DNA of 8,239 nucleotides from a virus (Duplodnaviria > Heunggongvirae > Uroviricota > Caudoviricetes), in the IMG/VR virus record IMGVR_UViG_3300014921_000099, positions 1-8,239 of that record, one strand, 5' to 3'. Numbering within the stretch: the first letter of the stretch is position 1; every line of letters starts with the position of its first letter. This document shows, in pieces, positions 1 through 8,239 of the stretch. Under the pieces are notes generated by a model. It made no database searches and was not told where the DNA came from. It saw only the letters and a program-made list of their open reading frames with translations. The translations under genes and the position numbers were made by a program.

Positions 1-144
1 GTCTCGGAAGTCACGTTTACTCAGGACCAGAACGGCACCCTGACGGAAATCCGTGTCGGCCCGCCTGATGCTTATCTGCCTGAACCCGAAGCCCCCGGCG
101 CGCGGAAAAAGAAAAAAGCCAGAGTACAGGAGGACCCGTTCTGA
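1..144 (+). CDS. 3' end of an upstream phage tail/baseplate gene (partial; start lies outside the window)
   Basis: Frame 1 is open from base 1 to a TGA at 142-144 that overlaps the ATG at 144 of the next gene (TGATG coupling). Composition is GC-rich like the downstream tail genes. Product cannot be assigned from 47 residues. Confidence 0.45.
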   Translation, partial: VSEVTFTQDQNGTLTEIRVGPPDAYLPEPEAPGARKKKKARVQEDPF

Positions 145-692
145 TGAGGACGATTGAAGCCATGCAGCGACAACTTCTCGGCCTGATTGGGCGGGCCGTG
201 GTGAAAAGCATCAGTGCCGCCACGAAATGTCAGACCGTGGATGTGTCCCTGATTGCCGGTGAACCCAAAGCCGGGGTTGAACATCTTGAACCCTACGGTT
301 TTACCGCAAGGGCAAACAGCGGTGCGGAAGCGGTGGTGTTGTTTCCGGATGGCGACCGTTCTCATGCGGTGGTTGTTACGGTGTCGGACCGGCGCTACCG
401 CCTGAAAGGGCTGCAGACGGGTGAGGTGGCTGTCTATGACGATCAGGGGCAGTCTGTGACGCTGACCCGGGAGGGGATCGTGGTGGACGGTGCAGGGAAA
501 ACGATCACGTTTCGCAATGCAACTGAAGCACGTTTTGAAATGGATCTGGAAGTGACCGGACAAGTGAAAGACCTGTGCGACTCCGGCGGCACCACCATGT
601 CAGCGATGCGGCTTGCCTATAACGGGCATCGTCACAGAGAGAACGGTCAGGGCAGTAACACCGACAAACCTGATAAAGCGATGGAGGCATGA
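144..692 (+). CDS. Baseplate central spike protein (P2 gpV / Mu gp45-like)
   Basis: 182-aa ORF with AGGAGG at 128-133 upstream of ATG 144. Translation has the look of the gpV/gp45 spike family, including an HxH motif ('NGHRHRENG') near the C-terminus, typical of the metal-binding spike apex. Followed by the expected baseplate gene order. Assignment by family recognition, not by search. Confidence 0.8.
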   Translation: MRTIEAMQRQLLGLIGRAVVKSISAATKCQTVDVSLIAGEPKAGVEHLEPYGFTARANSGAEAVVLFPDGDRSHAVVVTVSDRRYRLKGLQTGEVAVYDDQGQSVTLTREGIVVDGAGKTITFRNATEARFEMDLEVTGQVKDLCDSGGTTMSAMRLAYNGHRHRENGQGSNTDKPDKAMEA

Positions 693-1117
693 TGGAACTG
701 TGGCTGACGGTGAACGGTAAACGCACCTGCGCCAGCGCACCGCTGGATCCGCTGACCCGCGCCGTGGTGATTTCCCTGTTCACCTGGCGGCGGGCGGAGC
801 CTGATGACAATGCCGACGTCCCGATGGGATGGTGGGGGGATACCTGGCCTGCGGTACAGAATGACCGTTACGGCTCCCGACTGTGGCTGCTTCAGCGCAG
901 CAAACTGACCAATCAGCTGGTGCAGACGGTAAGGGGATATATCCGCGAATGCCTGCAATGGATGACTGATGACGGCGTGGTGTCCCGTATTGATCTGGAT
1001 ATCCGCCGCACCGGGATTAATGAGCTGGGTAACAGTATCACCCTCTGGCGTCGTGATGGACCAGTAATGATTTCTTTTGATGATCTGTGGAGTGCGATAA
1101 CGCATGGCGGACAGTGA
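689..1117 (+). CDS. Phage GP46-family baseplate protein (Mu gp46-like)
   Basis: 142-aa ORF whose start overlaps the stop of the spike gene (ATGA/TGATG at 689-694). Size and position between spike and baseplate J match Mu-like baseplate modules. Confidence 0.75.
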   Translation: MMELWLTVNGKRTCASAPLDPLTRAVVISLFTWRRAEPDDNADVPMGWWGDTWPAVQNDRYGSRLWLLQRSKLTNQLVQTVRGYIRECLQWMTDDGVVSRIDLDIRRTGINELGNSITLWRRDGPVMISFDDLWSAITHGGQ

Positions 1118-2162
1118 ATTTCAGCGCCCGACGCTGGCAGAAAATATCAGTATGCTCCGTAACGATTTATTCGCCAGGCTGGACGTCAGCGACACGCTCC
1201 GGCGCATGGATGAAGACGTGCGGGCAAAGGTGTATGCGGCGGCGCTGCATACGGTCTACGGTTACATCGATTATCTGGCAATGAATATGCTGCCTGACCT
1301 GTGCGATGAGTCCTGGTTGGCGCGACATGCTGCGATGAAACGGTGTCCGCGCAAGGGAGCCACGGTTGCCAGCGGGTATATGCGCTGGGAAGGTGTCAGC
1401 GATGGCCTGAAGGTGACTGCCGGGAGTGTTATTCAGCGCGATGACCTGGTGCAGTACACGACAACTGACGATGCAATCAGCTCCGGTGGTGTCCTGCGCG
1501 TGCCGATCGCCTGCTCAAGTGCAGGTGCGGTCGGTAACGCTGACGACGGTACGGCATTAATCCTGGTCACGCCGGTGAATGGTCTGCCGTCTTCCGGTGT
1601 GGCTGACACCCTGACAGGCGGATTTGATACTGAAGAGCTGGATACGTGGCGCGCCCGCGTCATTGAGCCGTATTACTGGACGCCGCAGGGCGGGGCTGAC
1701 GGGGACTATGTCGTCTGGGCTAAAGAAGTGCCTGGCATTACCCGCGCATGGACATACCGACACTGGATGGGAACGGGGACTGTCGGTGTGATGATTGCCA
1801 GCAGTGACCTGATTAATCCCATTCCGGAAGAATCAACGGAAACGGCGGCAAGACAACATATCGGGCCACTGGCCCCGGTGGCAGGCTCTGATTTGTATGT
1901 GTTCAGGCCGGTGGCACATACGGTGGATTTTCATATCCGTGTGACGCCGGACACACCGGAAATACGGGCTGCCATCACCGCGGAGTTGCGTTCGTTCCTG
2001 CTGCGTGATGGTTATCCGCAGGGAGAACTGAAGGTGTCACGTATCAGTGAAGCGATTTCCGGTGCGAACGGGGAATACAGCCATCAGTTGCTTGCACCGG
2101 CGGACAATATCACCATTGCAAAAAATGAACTGGCGGTTCTGGGGGCGATTTCATGGACGTGA
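1104..2162 (+). CDS. Baseplate J-like protein (Mu gp47 / P2 gpJ family)
   Basis: 352-aa ORF overlapping the previous gene by 14 nt and the next by 10 nt. Size and position are typical of the baseplate J wedge protein. GC-rich codon usage consistent with neighbours. Confidence 0.8.
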
Positions 2163-2737
2163 CAAACGATGATTACATCCGTCTGTTGTCAGCACTGTTG
2201 CCGCCCGGTCCGGCGTGGTCAGCCAGCGATCCGGCGATTGCCGGTGCGGCACCGTCATTAACCCGCGTTCATCAGCGTGCGGATGCCCTGATGCGGGAGC
2301 TGGATCCGCGCACCACCACCGAACTGATAAATCGCTGGGAGCGTCTGTGCGGCCTGCCGGATGAATGTATTCCTACAGGGACACAGACCCTTCGCCAGCG
2401 TCAGCAACGGCTGGATGCGAAGGTGAACCTGGCGGGGGGCCTCAACGAGAATTTTTATCTTGCACAGCTTGCTGCCCTGGGCAGACCGGATGCCAACATC
2501 ACGCGATACGACAAAAGCACGTTCACCTGCTCATCGGCCTGTACTGACGCGGTGAATGCGCCTGAATGGCGGTATTACTGGCGGGTCAACATGCCAGCCG
2601 CCACCAACACCACCTGGATGACATGTGGCGATCCCTGTGATTCCGCGCTGCGCTTCTGGGGGGACACCGTTGTCGAGTGTGTTCTTAACAAACTCTGCCC
2701 GTCGCATACCTATGTGATTTTTAAATATCCGGAGTAA
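2153..2737 (+). CDS. Tail protein, P2 gpI / Mu gp48 / YmfQ-like (DUF2313 family)
   Basis: 194-aa ORF immediately after baseplate J and immediately before the tail fibre gene, the conserved location of the gpI-like protein. N-terminal '[16 protein letters not shown]' region is characteristic of this family as I recall it. Confidence 0.75.
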
Positions 2738-2740
2738 TCC

Positions 2741-3388
2741 ATGCATCGTATAGACACGAAAACCGCGCAGAAGGATAAGTTCGGCGCGGGTAAGAACGGT
2801 TTTACCCGTGGTAACCCCCAGACCGGCACGCCTGCCACCGATCTGGATGATGACTACTTTGACATGTTGCAGGAGGAGCTTTGCAGCGTTGTGGAGGCAT
2901 CCGGTGCCAGCCTGGAGAAGGGGCGGCATGACCAGCTGCTTACCGCGCTTCGTGCGCTGCTGTTAAGCCGCAAGAATCCGTTTGGCGATATCAAATCGGA
3001 TGGCACGGTGAAAACAGCTCTCGAAAACCTTGGTTTGGGAGAAGCGGCAAAGAGGAATGTGGGGACAGGAGAAAATCAGGTTCCGGATATGAACAGCTTT
3101 GGTAACTCATTGACCGCCAATGGATACCAGAAATTACCTGGGGGGATGATTATTCAATGGGGGAGTTTTTCTGTCTCACCAACCGGAGGAAGTGTTGGAA
3201 CAGTTGATATAACATTACCTGTAGCTTTCCCTGCTGCTTGTCGTTCGGTAAACGCTCTTATTTCAACTAATGATCCTTCTGCCCGTTCTGTGGGCTTTGA
3301 TATTGGAAGTACCAACAGAACCAAAATCAGATTTACTTACACTTCTGCTACAACAAATTCAATTTACTGGATGGCTGTGGGGTATTAA
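2741..3388 (+). CDS. Tail fibre protein: constant N-terminal part (codons 1-~93) fused to the variable C-terminal part currently in the expressed orientation
   Basis: 215-aa ORF. N-terminus '[21 protein letters not shown]...' resembles the conserved N-terminal region of enterobacterial e14/Mu-type side tail fibres. The reading frame runs through the crossover site at 3019-3042 ('LENLGLGE'). GC drops sharply downstream of the site, as expected for a swapped variable domain. Confidence 0.85.
3019..3042. repeat. Invertase crossover site (gix/pix/hix-like), left copy, inside the tail fibre ORF
   Basis: TCTCGAAAACC-TT-GGTTTGGGAGA has imperfect dyad symmetry and closely resembles hix/gix sites (hixL recalled as TTCTTGAAAACCAAGGTTTTTGATAA). 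Its reverse complement shares the core TTGGTTTGGGAGAAG exactly with the site at 4877-4900. Confidence 0.7.
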
Positions 3389-3390
3389 CT

Positions 3391-3822
3391 ATGGAAAAGA
3401 CATATTATTTTAATCCCTCTGATTCGGGATTTTATATTTCACCAGATAGCCAAACCATTCCTGAGAACGCTACGAAAATAAACTTTACTATTTATTCTGA
3501 GTTCGCAGGAGTTGCATGGCCTGATGGTAAAATACTTGGTTCAGATAAAAATGGTTTTCCAGCATGGCAGGATGCGCCACCACTTACCAGCGAAGAATTA
3601 ATCTCAATCGCTGAATCAAATAAACAGCGATTAGTTAATCAGGCCAACGAATACATGAACAGTAAACAATGGCCTGGTAAAGCGGCGATTGGTCGTCTGA
3701 AAGGTGAGGAACTGGCGCAATATAATTTGTGGCTGGATTATCTGGACGCACTGGAACTGGTCGATACTTCCAGTGCGCCAGATATTGAATGGCCTACTCC
3801 TCCGGCAGTTCAGGCCAGATGA
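3391..3822 (+). CDS. Tail fibre assembly chaperone (Tfa / Mu U-like), expressed orientation
   Basis: 143-aa ORF starting 2 nt after the fibre stop. C-terminus '...LDYLDALELVDTSSAPDIEWPTPP' is the conserved Tfa C-terminal motif. Confidence 0.85.
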   Translation: MEKTYYFNPSDSGFYISPDSQTIPENATKINFTIYSEFAGVAWPDGKILGSDKNGFPAWQDAPPLTSEELISIAESNKQRLVNQANEYMNSKQWPGKAAIGRLKGEELAQYNLWLDYLDALELVDTSSAPDIEWPTPPAVQAR

Positions 3823-4396
3823 CATCCGGCGCGGTACTGGTATCTGTTGCCGTCACCGCGTCAATGTAATCCAGCACAGTGTTAAGTCGGGTGGTCTCTG
3901 CCTGCATCAGCTTCCGCCCGGCCTGCAATTTCAGTTGAATCAGACTAATGGAAGCCATTGCAGTATCAATCAGTGACTGACGTTGTGCTTCTGCCGCGTC
4001 TACTGCGGCGCTATGCTGTGTCTCAGTATCCGTTACCCATTTCTCACCATCCCATTTATCGTATGGCGTTAACGGGGCGATAGTGGTTGTTTTTTCGGGG
4101 TAATCACCCGGAGTTGTGATTTCTTTGGCGTCTCCCGTTTCGGTGTTATAGACGATTTCACCGCGATGGTCTGGTACATATTCCCATGAGTTAAAATCTG
4201 CAGAGCGGCAGATTGCATAACCAGCTTTGTAGGTGCCTGGAGCATCTAAACAGGAATATGCCGGAATGCCGACACCAACAGCAAGATATTCAGTTGAAGC
4301 TGAAATATACTCCCGACTCATGACGTCAAAGTTATAAACAGTAATTTCTCCTGCCATAGTGGCAATTAATTCACTGTTTAATTCTGCGTTATTCAT
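3794..4396 (-). CDS. Alternate tail fibre assembly chaperone (Tfa' / Mu U'-like), silent orientation
   Basis: 200-aa ORF on the - strand. C-terminus '...LDYIDAVTATDTSTAPDVIWPELPEE' is the same conserved Tfa motif. Start ATG overlaps the stop of the alternate fibre cassette (TAATG at 4394-4398). Its 3' end overlaps the + strand tfa convergently by 29 nt. Confidence 0.8.
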   Translation of the reverse strand: MNNAELNSELIATMAGEITVYNFDVMSREYISASTEYLAVGVGIPAYSCLDAPGTYKAGYAICRSADFNSWEYVPDHRGEIVYNTETGDAKEITTPGDYPEKTTTIAPLTPYDKWDGEKWVTDTETQHSAAVDAAEAQRQSLIDTAMASISLIQLKLQAGRKLMQAETTRLNTVLDYIDAVTATDTSTAPDVIWPELPEE

Positions 4397-4900
4397 TATG
4401 CAGCCCTCACAATATAGTTAAAAGCGACATTTCGTGGGCGTGTTTCATTCGCACCTGCAGGTTTAGTCGTTGCCGCAACAACACCACCCTCTGTAATAGC
4501 CGGGTTGGGAATTGGGTAATTATCGAAGTCAATGGCTGGAGACAGGGGCGTGATTTGTTTTAAAATCGTGGTGCCTGTAAAACTTTCCAGAGTCTGGTCG
4601 TTAGTTCGTGAAGTCCAGATTCCCCAATAGTGGTTATGACTGACAATCGCACCGTCCTGAAGCGTTAATAATCCCCTTCCGTTATCCACTCCACGCCCGT
4701 CATCCCAGCCACGAATAAACTCACCACGTAAATCAGGCAATTTATTTGTCGGATAAGCCTTTGCCAGTTCCGGGTATTCTTCAGCAGAAAAAGCGGCACC
4801 GTTGCATTTCAGCCAGCCTGTTGGCGGAGTGGCGGAAGGCCACGGAACAGGCACACCAACGGGGAATGCAGAACCTTCTCCCAAACCAACGTTTAAGAAA
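4396..4900 (-). CDS. Alternate tail fibre C-terminal (receptor-binding) cassette, promoterless and lacking its own N-terminus; becomes fused to the constant fibre N-terminus after inversion
   Basis: Minus-strand frame is open from the crossover site to the stop at 4396-4398. The frame through the site reads 'FLNVGLGE', matching 'LENLGLGE' at the left site, so inversion gives an in-frame fusion. Contains a typical fibre tip motif 'PVPWP...GWLKCNG...YPEL'. The ORF-track ATG at 4929 is probably not a real start. Confidence 0.75.
4877..4900. repeat. Invertase crossover site, right copy (inverted relative to 3019-3042), just upstream of the invertase remnant
   Basis: TCTCCCAAACCAACGTTTAAGAAA. The first 15 nt are identical to the reverse complement of the left site. 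Position immediately 5' of the invertase start is the canonical arrangement. Confidence 0.7.
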
Positions 4901-4955
4901 ATGCAGAGGTAACAGCTAACTGGCATCATTCCTGCTTTTGTCAGGGGGAGCTACC

Positions 4956-5162
4956 ATGCTTATTGGCTATGTAAGCGTATCAAAAAATGACCAGAACACA
5001 GATCTACAACGTAATACGTTGAACTGTGCAGGATGCGAGTTGATTTTTGAAGATAAGTGGTACAAAGTCCGACAGGCCGGGCTGAAAAAACTGCTCAGGA
5101 CACTATTGGCAGTAGACACTCTGGTTGTCTGGAAGCCGGGTAGCTCAGGAGCAGAACAATAG
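4956..5162 (+). pseudogene. Serine DNA invertase (Pin/Gin/Hin/Cin family), 5'-terminal remnant only; truncated and degenerate
   Basis: Translation from ATG 4956 (GGGGGAG RBS at 4944-4950) gives 'MLIGYVSVSKNDQNTDLQRN..CAGCE.IFEDK', the unmistakable N-terminus of Gin/Pin/Hin invertases. The conserved Arg of the 'GY.RVS' active-site motif is Ser here. Similarity decays after 'DTLVVWK' and the frame stops at 5162 after ~69 codons, where full-length invertases are ~185-190 aa. Downstream DNA is unrelated AT-rich sequence. The ORF-track start at 4938 is a TTG; I prefer ATG 4956. Confidence 0.8.
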
Positions 5163-5345
5163 TAAGCTACTGTGATATGCTGAAGTCTGAGTGTTTTTGC
5201 ACAATATAAGAGTATCCGTGAATTGCACATCGCTATTGATGAGTATATCCATATTACATTAATGAACGTCTGATATACTATAATTTTAGCTATGTCTTTT
5301 ATGATAGAATTAGGAAACAATAAAACATCATTGATGATGTACCTT

Positions 5346-5352
5346 TAAGGAG
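5346..5352 (+). promoter_or_regulatory. Ribosome-binding site of the 377-aa cargo gene
   Basis: TAAGGAG, 5 nt upstream of ATG 5358. Confidence 0.6.
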
Positions 5353-5357
5353 TTTAT

Positions 5358-6491
5358 ATGCTGGAAACAGCTCAAAAGAATGCAGGAAGACCTTATCCTG
5401 ATGCTCTTGTAAATCGCTTCGTTTTAGATATATCTAAGCTAAAGGATGGTGATGTTATCGTAGAGCATGGTTATAGTACTTACAGCCCAACAATTGAAAA
5501 AGTAACTAAGTGTTATTATACGCATGCAATGATTTACCTTGAGGGAACTATTATTGAGGCTACAAGTGACGGTGGCGTGTTTTCTAGAGTTCCCAATAGA
5601 ATAGCTGTTCCATTAGAAAAAGATTTGGTTGTATTAAGATTAAAGAATTCATTAGATCCGTATATTATGAATCTAATAACATCAAGGGCTAGGGAGTTGA
5701 TTGGTTCAAGCTATAGTATAACTGAAGCAGCATCAACACAAATATATAAAAACACTCCTGCTAAAAAAGCAAATATAAAAATCAAACCTAAGAGAAGTCA
5801 ATTCTGTTCTAGACTTGTTGCTCAATGCTATTCTTATGGTGGAGTTAATATAGTCGATAATATAGATTACTGTACGCCGAAGGATATCTTTAACTCTATA
5901 TACTTGCAACCAGTTCATAACGCAATTAAAGAAGGTTCGTCAGAAGAAATCTATCATGCCAATATAGGGGAGTTACATCCTAAACACCTAAAATCTTGTG
6001 TCGCCTGGGTTAAAACTGCAAAAAAAATTCTTGCCAAGCATGATGTTAAAGTTCAAACAATTAATGAAATCATACATGCCGTGGTAAAATTAAATAATAC
6101 CAAAGTCGATAAGGCAGTCTTTAAAGCCATCAATGATAGTGGTTACTTACAAGATTATGTTGATGATCGCATTCAAAATGAATATAGATATAACATAGTA
6201 ATGTTTCTTGATTTTTATAAAAAACAACAAATCTCTATCGAGATGGAAATTGAAAAAGAATTTGGCATTTATAAAACCAGGAAAAGTAATTTTCAAACTT
6301 ATAAGGATATGTATGAAGAACACCCAGCCAGAATAATAAAATGCCATCTTGATCTTGAAAAAAAACTATTAAAAAGCATTCATGAAAGATTAACCATTAT
6401 CCTTACCGTATGTCAGATGTTAGCATTAACCCCGAAAAATATAGCCAAAGCAAAAGAAATATTTATAGATATAAAATTCTTACTTGAATAA
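5358..6491 (+). CDS. Hypothetical two-domain protein: N-terminal permuted NlpC/P60-like (YiiX/DUF830-type) Cys/His hydrolase domain, C-terminal Lys/Glu-rich helical domain of unknown function
   Basis: 377-aa ORF with strong RBS and a rho-independent terminator 10 nt after the stop. About 30% GC against ~60% in the tail genes. N-terminal ~180 aa contain 'DGDVIVEHGY', 'THAMIY', 'IIEATSDGGV' and 'FCSRLV', which I read as the His-before-Cys arrangement of permuted papain-fold enzymes (candidate catalytic H56 and C150). Residues ~190-377 are K/E-rich with no motif I recognise. Domain call is from motif recognition only. Confidence 0.8.
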   Translation: MLETAQKNAGRPYPDALVNRFVLDISKLKDGDVIVEHGYSTYSPTIEKVTKCYYTHAMIYLEGTIIEATSDGGVFSRVPNRIAVPLEKDLVVLRLKNSLDPYIMNLITSRARELIGSSYSITEAASTQIYKNTPAKKANIKIKPKRSQFCSRLVAQCYSYGGVNIVDNIDYCTPKDIFNSIYLQPVHNAIKEGSSEEIYHANIGELHPKHLKSCVAWVKTAKKILAKHDVKVQTINEIIHAVVKLNNTKVDKAVFKAINDSGYLQDYVDDRIQNEYRYNIVMFLDFYKKQQISIEMEIEKEFGIYKTRKSNFQTYKDMYEEHPARIIKCHLDLEKKLLKSIHERLTIILTVCQMLALTPKNIAKAKEIFIDIKFLLE

Positions 6492-6500
6492 TAGATGGTT

Positions 6501-6528
6501 AAAGGCTCGATATTGAGCCTTTTTATTA
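6501..6528 (+). terminator. Rho-independent terminator of the 377-aa gene
   Basis: AAAGGCTC-gatatt-GAGCCTTT perfect 8-bp stem with 6-nt loop, followed by a T-rich run (TTTATT), 10 nt after the TAA stop. Confidence 0.7.
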
Positions 6529-6539
6529 ACAGCGTTTAC

Positions 6540-7020
6540 ATAAGAGATATTACGGAGTGTTTTTGTAAGGAGGGGTTAATAATCACCTTCATTTTTATAT
6601 GGCTCGAACTATGTAGTTGAATGAAATATTACGAGGTCTGACTGTTGCATGGTTAACACCATCGCTAACATATGGATCGGGATAAGGGAATCTGGAAAAT
6701 CCAAAACTGTAATCGACTATACCATCATGATTACTGCATGACCGGAGCCTACGTCAAAGTGCCCAGCATACTGTGTGAAAGATGTTGCTGCTTGAAAACT
6801 AAGTAATGTCATACGATTATCGATTCCTCTTCCATCATCCTAGCCACGAATAAATTCACCACGTGACTCGGGTAATATGCCAGCCGGATAAACCGCGTCT
6901 AATTTTGGATAGATATTTTTATCGAAGGGGCACCGTTATATTTCAGCCAGTCTTCTGGTGGGTTGGGGAGGGGCAACGGCACTGGCAACGCGGAGCCTTC
7001 CTCCAAACCAAAAAATAAAA
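6540..7020 (-). pseudogene. Decayed second copy of the alternate tail fibre C-terminal cassette, with remnant of the tfa' start and of the crossover site
   Basis: Hand alignment shows roughly 65-70% identity between 6590-7012 and 4396-4900, in the same orientation. It includes a crossover-site remnant (CCTTCCTCCAAACCAA at ~6996-7012) and a 'ttcat' junction remnant at 6588-6592. The frame is broken: TGG to TAG in the 'GEFIRGW' region plus indels, and no ORF of 60 aa or more is called here. Upstream of the junction only ~18 codons of a tfa'-like start remain. Confidence 0.6.
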
Positions 7021-7202
7021 ACTAGAAAGCCTGAGTCTGGTGCAATACCGAATTCAGGCTATGGTAACCGCTTACTATCATGTTTGATTTTAAGGAGGCT
7101 GCTTAGAGAAGCGATTTTAACGTTCTTAAGATGAATAACACATAGCTGACGCAAATGTTGTTTGCATTATGCAACATTTATTTATGGGGTATTTCAACCG
7201 AT

Positions 7203-7580
7203 TTAAGCTTTTACTCGGCCTTTAACTCCCGCCATTAGACTATGCTTTCCTTCTAAATCTACGTCAGATGTCCATATTGTGTAATTGCGGCTCTTGCGGC
7301 TAGAGGCAACAATCTTACTCTTAATTTCTCTTGGGGACATGTTCTTTGCTTGAGCTACAAGCACATAGTCTTTGGATGCTTTCTCTACCGCTTTCAATAA
7401 ATTTTCTGTGAGGATTTGTCCGTTGTTACGGCATCTACGAGTATTAAATCGTACAGCAAAATTCAGCGCATCCAGATAATCAGTGCGGATAGTTTCTTCT
7501 TTGAGCATCTGTTGCACGAATTTGCGGGCAGTTTTCGATTTCCCCAATTGTTTCACTACTGCTTGCTTACCGGGCTTCAT
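7203..7580 (-). CDS. Hypothetical small basic protein (125 aa, about a quarter Lys/Arg); possible nucleic-acid-binding protein
   Basis: ORF with a consensus AGGAGG RBS 5 nt upstream of the ATG. Lies 68 nt downstream of, and co-directional with, the 196-aa gene. About 40% GC. No family recognised from the sequence. Confidence 0.65.
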   Translation of the reverse strand: MKPGKQAVVKQLGKSKTARKFVQQMLKEETIRTDYLDALNFAVRFNTRRCRNNGQILTENLLKAVEKASKDYVLVAQAKNMSPREIKSKIVASSRKSRNYTIWTSDVDLEGKHSLMAGVKGRVKA

Positions 7581-7585
7581 ATGTT

Positions 7586-7591
7586 CCTCCT
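7586..7591 (-). promoter_or_regulatory. Ribosome-binding site of the 125-aa gene
   Basis: Minus-strand AGGAGG (plus-strand CCTCCT at 7586-7591) followed by 5 nt and the ATG at 7578-7580. Confidence 0.6.
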
Positions 7592-7648
7592 AACATTCTA
7601 CTAATAAATATTTTATCATAATAGTTCATAAAACACTCAACACAAATA

Positions 7649-8239
7649 TCAGATCAGTTTTGTCAAGAGCTTAGCGCGGGGCAAATTATTTCGCTTCACT
7701 CGAGCTTTGTCTGCAGCATTCAGTGAATAACCAAAAGATTCATATCTTTCAATGAGCTGCTTGTCAGGCCGACTAATATTGACCTGTCTGATACCATATG
7801 CATCAGCGAAACTCTCTGCAATGATTAGCGCAATTGGCATGACGAAACCTTTCAATGGATGATCATATGGATTTCCTTCGAGATATCTAAGTGTTATGCA
7901 GAGCCGTTTTTTAGAACGTCGACCAAGCATCAACCCGCAAAGAAAATCGCGGCATCGAATACTCACATCAATGCGTTTGGTCTGATTACGCCTTTCTTGG
8001 TTCCAGTTGATGTCAATGTAATGCCGTTTTTCTGGAAGACGCCACTCCCTGCTAGCCTCATCTGAGTCTTCATAATAGATGTGACCCAATTTGATTTCAT
8101 TAACCGGCAATCGGTTACCAAACCTTGTAGCAATAGAAAGCATAGCATCTGCGATTGCCTCAGAATAGATTAACTCATGGGTTAGCTCTTCAGTGGGACG
8201 AACTATGCTTGCTTGTACTGACTCCATATCCACTACCAT
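7649..8239 (-). CDS. Hypothetical protein (196 aa or more); N-terminus may extend beyond the window edge
   Basis: Long minus-strand ORF ending at a TGA at 7649-7651. The window ends exactly at the reverse complement of an ATG, so the true start is uncertain. About 40-42% GC. No family recognised with confidence. Confidence 0.6.
   Translation of the reverse strand: MVVDMESVQASIVRPTEELTHELIYSEAIADAMLSIATRFGNRLPVNEIKLGHIYYEDSDEASREWRLPEKRHYIDINWNQERRNQTKRIDVSIRCRDFLCGLMLGRRSKKRLCITLRYLEGNPYDHPLKGFVMPIALIIAESFADAYGIRQVNISRPDKQLIERYESFGYSLNAADKARVKRNNLPRAKLLTKLI

Follow-up and report, generated by a model that had tools for sequence, protein, structure and literature searches.

A mobile gene pair encoding a divergent GNAT-fold enzyme and a small basic partner at an Escherichia coli prophage end, a candidate toxin-antitoxin or abortive-infection module

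What is the role of the two adjacent minus-strand genes, here named A and B, that occupy the end of an 8,239-nucleotide (nt) stretch of tailed-phage DNA (IMG/VR virus record IMGVR_UViG_3300014921_000099, positions 1 to 8,239; the whole stretch is hereafter called the window), next to the remains of a prophage? An initial annotation made from the letters alone could place neither product in a family and offered, as a speculation, a toxin-antitoxin (TA) or small defence module in an accessory location. According to its predicted structure, gene A encodes a divergent GNAT-fold acyltransferase from an unannotated family, with acyl transfer as its predicted activity. Together, A and B form a mobile, obligately linked two-gene unit. 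We propose, with middling confidence, that this unit is a self-contained and mobile toxin-first GNAT toxin-antitoxin or abortive-infection module. The module type suggested initially fits all of the findings described below, with its role in toxicity or defence staying putative. The two genes and the spacer between them are located as follows:

Positions 7649-8239, minus strand: open reading frame (ORF) of gene A, 196 amino acids (aa), or 192 aa from the start codon at Met5 (window position 8227)
Positions 7581-7648, minus strand: spacer between A and B, 68 nt, holding the putative regulatory elements of B
Positions 7203-7580, minus strand: ORF of gene B, 125 aa

These coordinates and a scan of guanine plus cytosine (GC) content bear out the initial description of two minus-strand ORFs with a 68-nt spacer, an AGGAGG ribosome-binding site and a GC content of about 40% that is distinct from both the phage core and a neighbouring gene for a 377-aa protein. 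GC content is 0.39-0.435 across positions 7001-8200; the 377-aa gene has a lower value (0.28-0.34) and the baseplate genes a higher one (0.53-0.61).

The GNAT-fold enzyme and its pairing with gene B

A and B are both real genes under purifying selection. Between E. coli and Klebsiella, A has a ratio of nonsynonymous to synonymous substitution rates (dN/dS) of 0.18 and B one of 0.35, and in deeper comparisons the synonymous sites are saturated while the A and B proteins are still 45-72% identical, so the pair does not consist of chance ORFs. Gene A had been suspected of being truncated by the window edge. It is complete inside the window, since the homologues (16 of 16 aligned) begin at or near Met5 (MESVQ...), with lengths of 192-196 aa. 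The start assigned to A by RefSeq/PGAP, a TTG located 18 codons upstream of the window ORF and giving a 214-aa product (positions 13192-13194 of locus L001), has no backing among the homologues. A GGGAG Shine-Dalgarno (SD) sequence precedes the Met5 ATG of A in Klebsiella, and is not present there in E. coli.

The structural model of A contains the mixed alpha/beta GNAT core, arranged as beta1-alpha1-alpha2-beta2-beta3-beta4-alpha3-beta5-alpha4-beta6-beta7. At the sequence level, A fails every curated GNAT model (Pfam Acetyltransf_1 and related), and no Pfam match was obtained for A itself (E<=1) or for 66 scanned members of its family (E<=0.01). No match to A was found in NCBIfam or among the 5,027 models of PADLOC-DB 2.0 (E<=1), and its single PHROG match, to PHROG 4350 of unknown function, covers the C-terminal half (E 2.9e-6). 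Sequence and profile searches of the PDB with A or B returned nothing significant; the sub-threshold profile matches of A were nourseothricin acetyltransferase (E 0.095) and GNA1 (E 1). By profile or fold, the GNATs nearest to A include acetyltransferases for nourseothricin, streptothricin and aminoglycosides as well as the tabtoxin resistance protein, and known GNAT toxins, judged by the names of the matches, are not among the closest structures. An exhaustive profile search of 1.84 billion representatives identified 382 relatives of A at E<=1e-3, 68 of these at E<=1e-10, with lengths of about 170-210 aa. Given the modelled fold and the lack of Pfam matches among the 66 scanned members, A belongs to an unannotated GNAT-fold family. 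The initial verdict that neither protein could be assigned is therefore superseded for A, by the GNAT fold of its model, and stands for B, for which neither a known family nor fold relatives were found. A match to a characterised family of phage structural or regulatory proteins, which the initial annotation had named as refuting its proposal, was found for neither A nor B.

Members of the A family share the pattern W..W.W...(A/S)IW...LCGLxLG..S...EG.P..HPLKG...P...Y. The conserved E-G-N-P-x-x-H-P-L-K-G loop of A precedes a helix at residues 133-147, and a nearly invariant tyrosine, Tyr166, is located in helix 160-168. By their secondary-structure register in the model, the HPLKG loop and Tyr166 probably sit at the coenzyme A (CoA)-binding and catalytic-acid positions of GNAT enzymes.

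In about 14 distinct genomic contexts, among which A is 42-100% identical, B lies next to A, and the enzyme gene is upstream of its partner in all loci examined. These contexts comprise a decayed prophage beside ssrA in E. coli, the end of a lambdoid prophage after umuDC in Klebsiella, the end of a P2-like prophage after ogr in E. coli, three different islands with a Yersinia-type A near CBASS, MazEF, RES, CbtA or insertion sequence (IS) elements, the Serratia chromosome, two metagenomic lineages (one with the pair between fliR and flgL), Klebsiella sp. BIGb0407 and Rouxiella, the Erwinia IncN plasmid pEB102, and a Pantoea plasmid on which the pair is located beside parM/parR. IMG/VR viral contigs are a further such context, with matches to the B profile directly downstream of A in 3 of 3 loci. 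The co-occurrence that the initial annotation had asked about thus extends to every context examined, so that neither of its two refuting conditions applies, and the A-B pair is a mobile two-gene unit whose members are obligately linked. It was detected in 6 of 5,426 complete E. coli genomes and in 4 of 185,579 species representatives.

In three further complete E. coli genomes (PK8568, locus L002, positions 7998-8300; H8; H9), an IS3 element removed B together with the C-terminal half of A. The remaining stub of A is 100 aa long, is annotated as hypothetical and abuts a CP4-57-like island (CbtA/CbeA, RadC, antirestriction, YfjI) rather than ssrA. In the Klebsiella loci L012-L016, the pair is located after umuD/umuC where a lambdoid prophage ends; the tail-fibre region of this prophage is invertible, and two tandem reverse-transcriptase genes (RVT_1, 494 aa each) are located just upstream in L014.

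Gene B, its expression signals and the partners of remote A relatives

The product of gene B contains 27 Lys and Arg among its 125 residues (pI 10.3), in line with the Lys/Arg-rich composition noted initially. Its AlphaFold model consists of four to five helices at moderate confidence (pLDDT 70, pTM 0.51), and the B family shares a conserved helical core at about residues 30-98 and the C-terminal motif W-x-x-D-x-x-L-E-x-x-x-S-x-M-A-G. No specific fold relatives of B were found in PDB or BFVD, no Pfam, NCBIfam or PHROG family matched, and no PADLOC model matched at E<=1. A sub-threshold match to Fcf1/PIN (E 0.007, 17.1 bits vs a cut-off of 21.4) was rejected. Homologues of B form about 10 clusters, and in each lineage B has changed more rapidly than A, the A/B identities being 88/81, 72/61, 66/52, 58/45, 56/36, 53/35 and 42/18.

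The spacer between A and B is 51-70 nt long across the contexts of the pair and 54-70 nt long in every enterobacterial lineage, and its core, TATGaTAnAnTA, is kept in all of these lineages although synonymous sites are saturated. Within the window, three elements were located upstream of the B start codon:

Positions 7624-7636, minus strand: conserved box GTGTTTTATGAAC, identified in the spacer alignment just upstream of the -10 element
Positions 7610-7618, minus strand: extended -10 element (TGnTAnnnT), TGATAAAAT, 29 nt upstream of the B start codon
Positions 7586-7591, minus strand: AGGAGG SD sequence of B, 5 nt before the ATG

Each of the 9 enterobacterial lineages compared (A identity 42-100%) has the extended -10 element, located 27-36 nt upstream of the ATG of B, and this conservation points to a putative B-specific promoter. 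A generic -35/-10 scan omitted the element because it has no good -35 sequence. The GTGTTTTATGAAC box could act as a -35 substitute or as an operator. In addition, TTATGA occurs twice in the spacer, 10 nt apart (window positions 7611-7636, minus strand; TTATGAAC..TTATGATA), with the second copy inside the -10 region. A similar sequence, TTATGGTAATAAT, is located just upstream of gene A in E. coli (locus L003, around positions 9960-9985) and is not conserved there in other genera; together with the TTATGA repeats, it could represent a shared operator or promoter design. A strong SD-like sequence precedes B in most lineages. No terminator was found between A and B, and no intrinsic terminator was found after B within the window. 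With its own putative promoter, read-through from A and a consensus SD sequence, B is predicted to outnumber A. An RNA element in the spacer was judged unlikely, as the spacer has no Rfam match and only a marginal predicted hairpin (z = -2.1), and as a promoter accounts better for the conserved bases; the sole Rfam match was a chance match to SgrS (E 0.33) inside gene A.

Remote relatives of A (30-40% identity) are also followed by a co-directional ORF, which begins at -25 to +58 nt from the A stop codon in every locus with enough downstream sequence. These partners vary and comprise a peptide of 64-82 aa and proteins of 122 aa, 177-184 aa and 363-370 aa. The 177-184-aa partner carries an XRE-type helix-turn-helix (HTH) domain (HTH_37, E 3e-9), and XRE-type HTH domains are typical of antitoxins. 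The 363-370-aa partner, from one remote branch (metagenomic loci L042-L044 and L047), contains four or more TPR repeats (TPR_12, E 1.6e-43) and an N-terminus that resembles the short partners (…PSLAQVRKRL…); it might be a partner of the sensor type. At their C-terminus, the short partners carry a segment similar to that of B (KWFSDNDGFVYTGPLAGSKKRKSV in the Pseudomonas type vs IWTSDVDLEGKHSLMAGVKGRVKA in B). A hidden Markov model of the B family ranks the remote partner ORFs first among 637 decoy ORFs, at E values of only 1.5-2.6. For this reason, we do not claim homology between B and the remote partners and describe the resemblance as one of position and motif.

Proposed function and alternatives

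Among known systems, the A-B pair most resembles a toxin-first type II TA system in which a GNAT enzyme would be the toxin. As is general for type II TA systems, its genes are small, adjacent and co-directional, are inherited together and are scattered over mobile elements. The gene order agrees with that of HigBA, MqsRA, HicAB and RnlAB, in which the toxin gene is located upstream and the antitoxin gene downstream, and some toxin-first type II systems possess an extra antitoxin-specific promoter. Furthermore, the XRE-type HTH_37 domain in partners of remote A relatives is shared with HigA/MqsA-like antitoxins. In contrast to A, the toxins of these systems are RNases and not acyltransferases, and the window B has no detectable HTH. 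The A-B pair is also found where prophage-end 'moron' or defence cargo is located, past the tail-fibre genes and next to attachment (att) sites (beside ssrA and past the fibre/invertase region in E. coli, after umuDC in a Klebsiella lambdoid prophage, after ogr in a P2-like prophage), but unlike such cargo it is additionally present on plasmids, on islands and in a flagellar locus.

In previously described systems, a GNAT toxin acetylates aminoacyl-tRNA and has a DUF1778 protein as its antitoxin (PMC9177977, PMC6698736, PMC6125619). The A-B module shares with these systems (TacAT, AtaRT, ItaRT, KacAT) a GNAT-fold enzyme of about 170-190 aa that is encoded with a small protein in a two-gene mobile operon on prophages, islands and plasmids, and probably also a modular partner with a toxin-contacting C-terminal part. 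It is, however, not a member of the GNAT/DUF1778 systems: A has no sequence similarity to their toxins, the enzyme gene comes first whereas the antitoxin gene is upstream in those operons, and B is a basic 125-aa protein with an all-helical model of long helices, not a DUF1778/ribbon-helix-helix (RHH) protein, and has its own predicted promoter. Searches of the literature by accession and topic found no description of the A-B module.

Which of the two genes would encode the toxin is suggested by several lines of evidence. In Rouxiella aceris (L030), the A homologue (positions 3932-4525) contains an in-frame stop at the codon for the family-invariant Trp66, and the B-like gene (positions 4596-5015, 139 aa) is intact, a combination that is tolerable only if A, and not B, is harmful. 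We assign the role of toxin to A because of this stopped A beside an intact B, because B has the extra putative promoter and the strong SD sequence, because B evolves faster, and because a remote partner bears an antitoxin-type HTH. The toxin-antidote reading as such is based on the location of the module among TA and defence genes, beside plasmid partition genes and on mobile elements, on its obligate pairing in about 14 settings, and on its patchy and rare distribution.

In the mechanism that we propose, for which we infer the identity of the toxin, direct binding between A and B, the trigger and the target, A would be a growth-arresting effector that acylates an essential cellular amine. 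Analogy with TacT, AtaT and ItaT suggests aminoacyl-tRNA or another component of translation as a possible target. B would be the cognate neutraliser, supplied in excess by read-through from A, its own promoter and the consensus SD sequence. The conserved C-terminal segment of B would hold A inactive, and its N-terminal helical domain would be the exchangeable part, with an HTH, TPR repeats or nothing in its place in distant relatives. If the supply of B stopped, either through loss of the element or through host shut-off during phage infection, A would be freed and growth would be arrested, with a stabilised prophage, island or plasmid, or abortive-infection defence, as the outcome. More tentatively, we suggest that the 382-representative A family and its hypervariable, modular partner constitute a new toxin-first TA or abortive-infection family that is distributed across Proteobacteria on prophages, plasmids and islands. 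In this family, the acyltransferase would be plugged by the short conserved C-terminal peptide of the partner and might have a target other than the aminoacyl-tRNA of TacT and AtaT.

Several observations weigh against a toxin-antidote function of the pair. A is absent from all 50,697 deposited phage genomes, neither A nor B matches any PADLOC model, and the Rouxiella pseudogene of A is a single case. The CoA motif of A is atypical, with HPLKG instead of R/Q-x-x-G-x-G/A, and the loop residues 121-130 were modelled at moderate confidence (pLDDT 66). The homology of B with the remote partners lacks statistical significance (E 1.5-2.6, 637 decoys). Many antitoxins are acidic and B is strongly basic (pI 10.3), and a DNA-binding fold was not recovered for B in fold searches. 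The latter result also leaves unsupported the initial suggestion that the basic composition of B indicates nucleic-acid binding, A being basic as well (pI 9.3).

Alternatively, the pair might consist of an enzyme and its substrate or regulator without any toxicity. A would then acylate B or a host or phage protein, and B would be a substrate, specificity subunit, chaperone or regulator in a lysogenic-conversion or regulatory 'moron'. The distribution of lysines in B weighs against this alternative: no Lys inside the conserved C-terminal motif is invariant, and Lys67, Lys87 and Lys89 are invariant in the close family only. A separate strong promoter is not obviously needed for a mere substrate, and the patchy spread, the neighbouring partition, integrase, TA and defence genes and the fast-evolving partner are more typical of conflict or addiction modules. 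We therefore regard a non-toxic enzyme-substrate or enzyme-regulator pair as unlikely.

The assignment of toxin and antidote could also be reversed, with B as a toxin acting on, for example, the nucleoid, RNA or a membrane and A as an antitoxin that binds or acetylates B, in the manner of YjhX(TopAI)-YjhQ or of type VII systems. YjhQ is annotated as a GNAT acetyltransferase, and the YjhX-YjhQ pair of E. coli K-12, like A-B, combines a small basic protein with a GNAT-family protein of about 180 aa. There, YjhX (85 aa) is the toxin and YjhQ (181 aa) its neutraliser (PMC4666372), a precedent to which the small size and highly basic composition of B would correspond. However, the small toxin is encoded first in yjhX-yjhQ and the order is opposite in A-B, no sequence relationship connects the two systems, and B has no Pfam match, including to any YjhX toxin model there. 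The expression signals and the Rouxiella pseudogene also argue for the opposite assignment: the extra conserved, putative promoter and the consensus SD sequence belong to B, which would make B the more abundant product, B evolves faster than A, and Rouxiella with an inactivated A and an intact B would die if B were the toxin. Reversed roles are consequently improbable.

Finally, a small-molecule resistance cassette, in which A would inactivate an antibiotic, a microcin or an aminated compound derived from a phage or competitor and B would be accessory or regulatory, agrees with the antibiotic acetyltransferases and tabtoxin resistance protein among the nearest GNATs and with carriage on plasmids and prophages, but is highly doubtful given that resistance GNATs are normally single genes, that an obligate, co-evolving and hypervariable partner across the whole family would be left unexplained, that linkage to resistance genes is absent except by chance (one cat neighbour), and that the module is extremely rare in E. 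coli.

The prophage end at ssrA and implications for the family

The toxin-first GNAT module proposed here is preceded in the window by the remains of more than one phage element. Besides A and B, the following features were located past or at the end of the recognisable prophage:

Positions 4938-5162, plus strand: pin/resolvase invertase gene, cut after about 68 codons, exactly where homology to e14-like prophages ends
Positions 5358-6491, plus strand: cargo gene for the 377-aa protein, GC content 0.28-0.34
Positions ~6615-7011, ORF-free: decayed fibre gene, 78-79% identical to phage tail-protein and tail-collar fibre genes

Positions 1 to about 5135 represent the tail end of an e14/Mu-type prophage and encode, in this order, the baseplate proteins gp45/46/J/48, a fibre, two assembly proteins, an inverted fibre segment and the truncated pin invertase. 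This stretch is 94-98% identical to thousands of E. coli prophages, and the homology stops at positions 5134-5139. Since e14-like homology ends at the truncated pin gene, a recombination event replaced or deleted the phage's right end. Past this junction follow the AT-rich 377-aa gene, the decayed tail-fibre remnant, gene B and gene A, and the 3' end of ssrA is located about 360 nt beyond gene A, outside the window. In agreement with the decayed fibre cassette described initially, the remnant at ~6615-7011 is the decayed fibre gene of an older prophage end; about 500 E. coli genomes hold tail-fibre matches to it.

The N-terminal ~160 residues of the 377-aa protein show weak similarity to permuted papain-like YiiX/YaeF proteins (Peptidase_C92; Pfam E 1.2e-4, NCBIfam E ~1e-4, both below the cut-off) and to PHROG 1128 (E 4.8e-8), and its C-terminal ~200 residues stay unassigned. 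The protein matches no PADLOC model at E<=1. Of the contexts of A-B, only the one at ssrA in E. coli includes the gene for this protein; it is missing from the Klebsiella, P2-like, Yersinia, Serratia and plasmid contexts, and linkage with A-B was rejected for this reason.

In other strains of E. coli, the interval between ssrA and A holds further insertions, namely P2/186-like prophages, a P4-like satellite (carrying Psu, Ogr/Delta, AlpA and primase) or a lambdoid prophage. All of these ssrA-side insertions keep the same ~355-390 nt upstream of A (loci L005, L007, L010 and L011), with ssrA as a hotspot of stacked integrations. One carrier strain of E. coli (L003, positions 17548-20591) has a 206-aa ORF and the large terminase gene directly after the baseplate genes. 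It lacks the genes for the tape measure and for DNA circulation that are present in L006, which indicates that, in at least some strains, the prophage carrying the window region has an internal deletion.

For annotation, two 'hypothetical proteins' gain a testable function, and the RefSeq start codon of A is corrected. The enzyme family is unannotated and its partner unusual and modular, and both are carried on mobile elements of clinically relevant Enterobacterales. If the proposed function is correct, GNAT toxins would no longer be tied to a sole DUF1778/RHH antitoxin architecture, and an annotation would become available for a family that Pfam, NCBIfam and PADLOC do not detect. The module would furthermore be a candidate defence or addiction system of prophage ends and plasmids in Escherichia, Klebsiella, Serratia, Yersinia, Pantoea and Pseudomonas, and the helical, HTH, TPR and mini-peptide partners on one enzyme core would represent a natural experiment in the swapping of antidotes and, possibly, of phage sensors.

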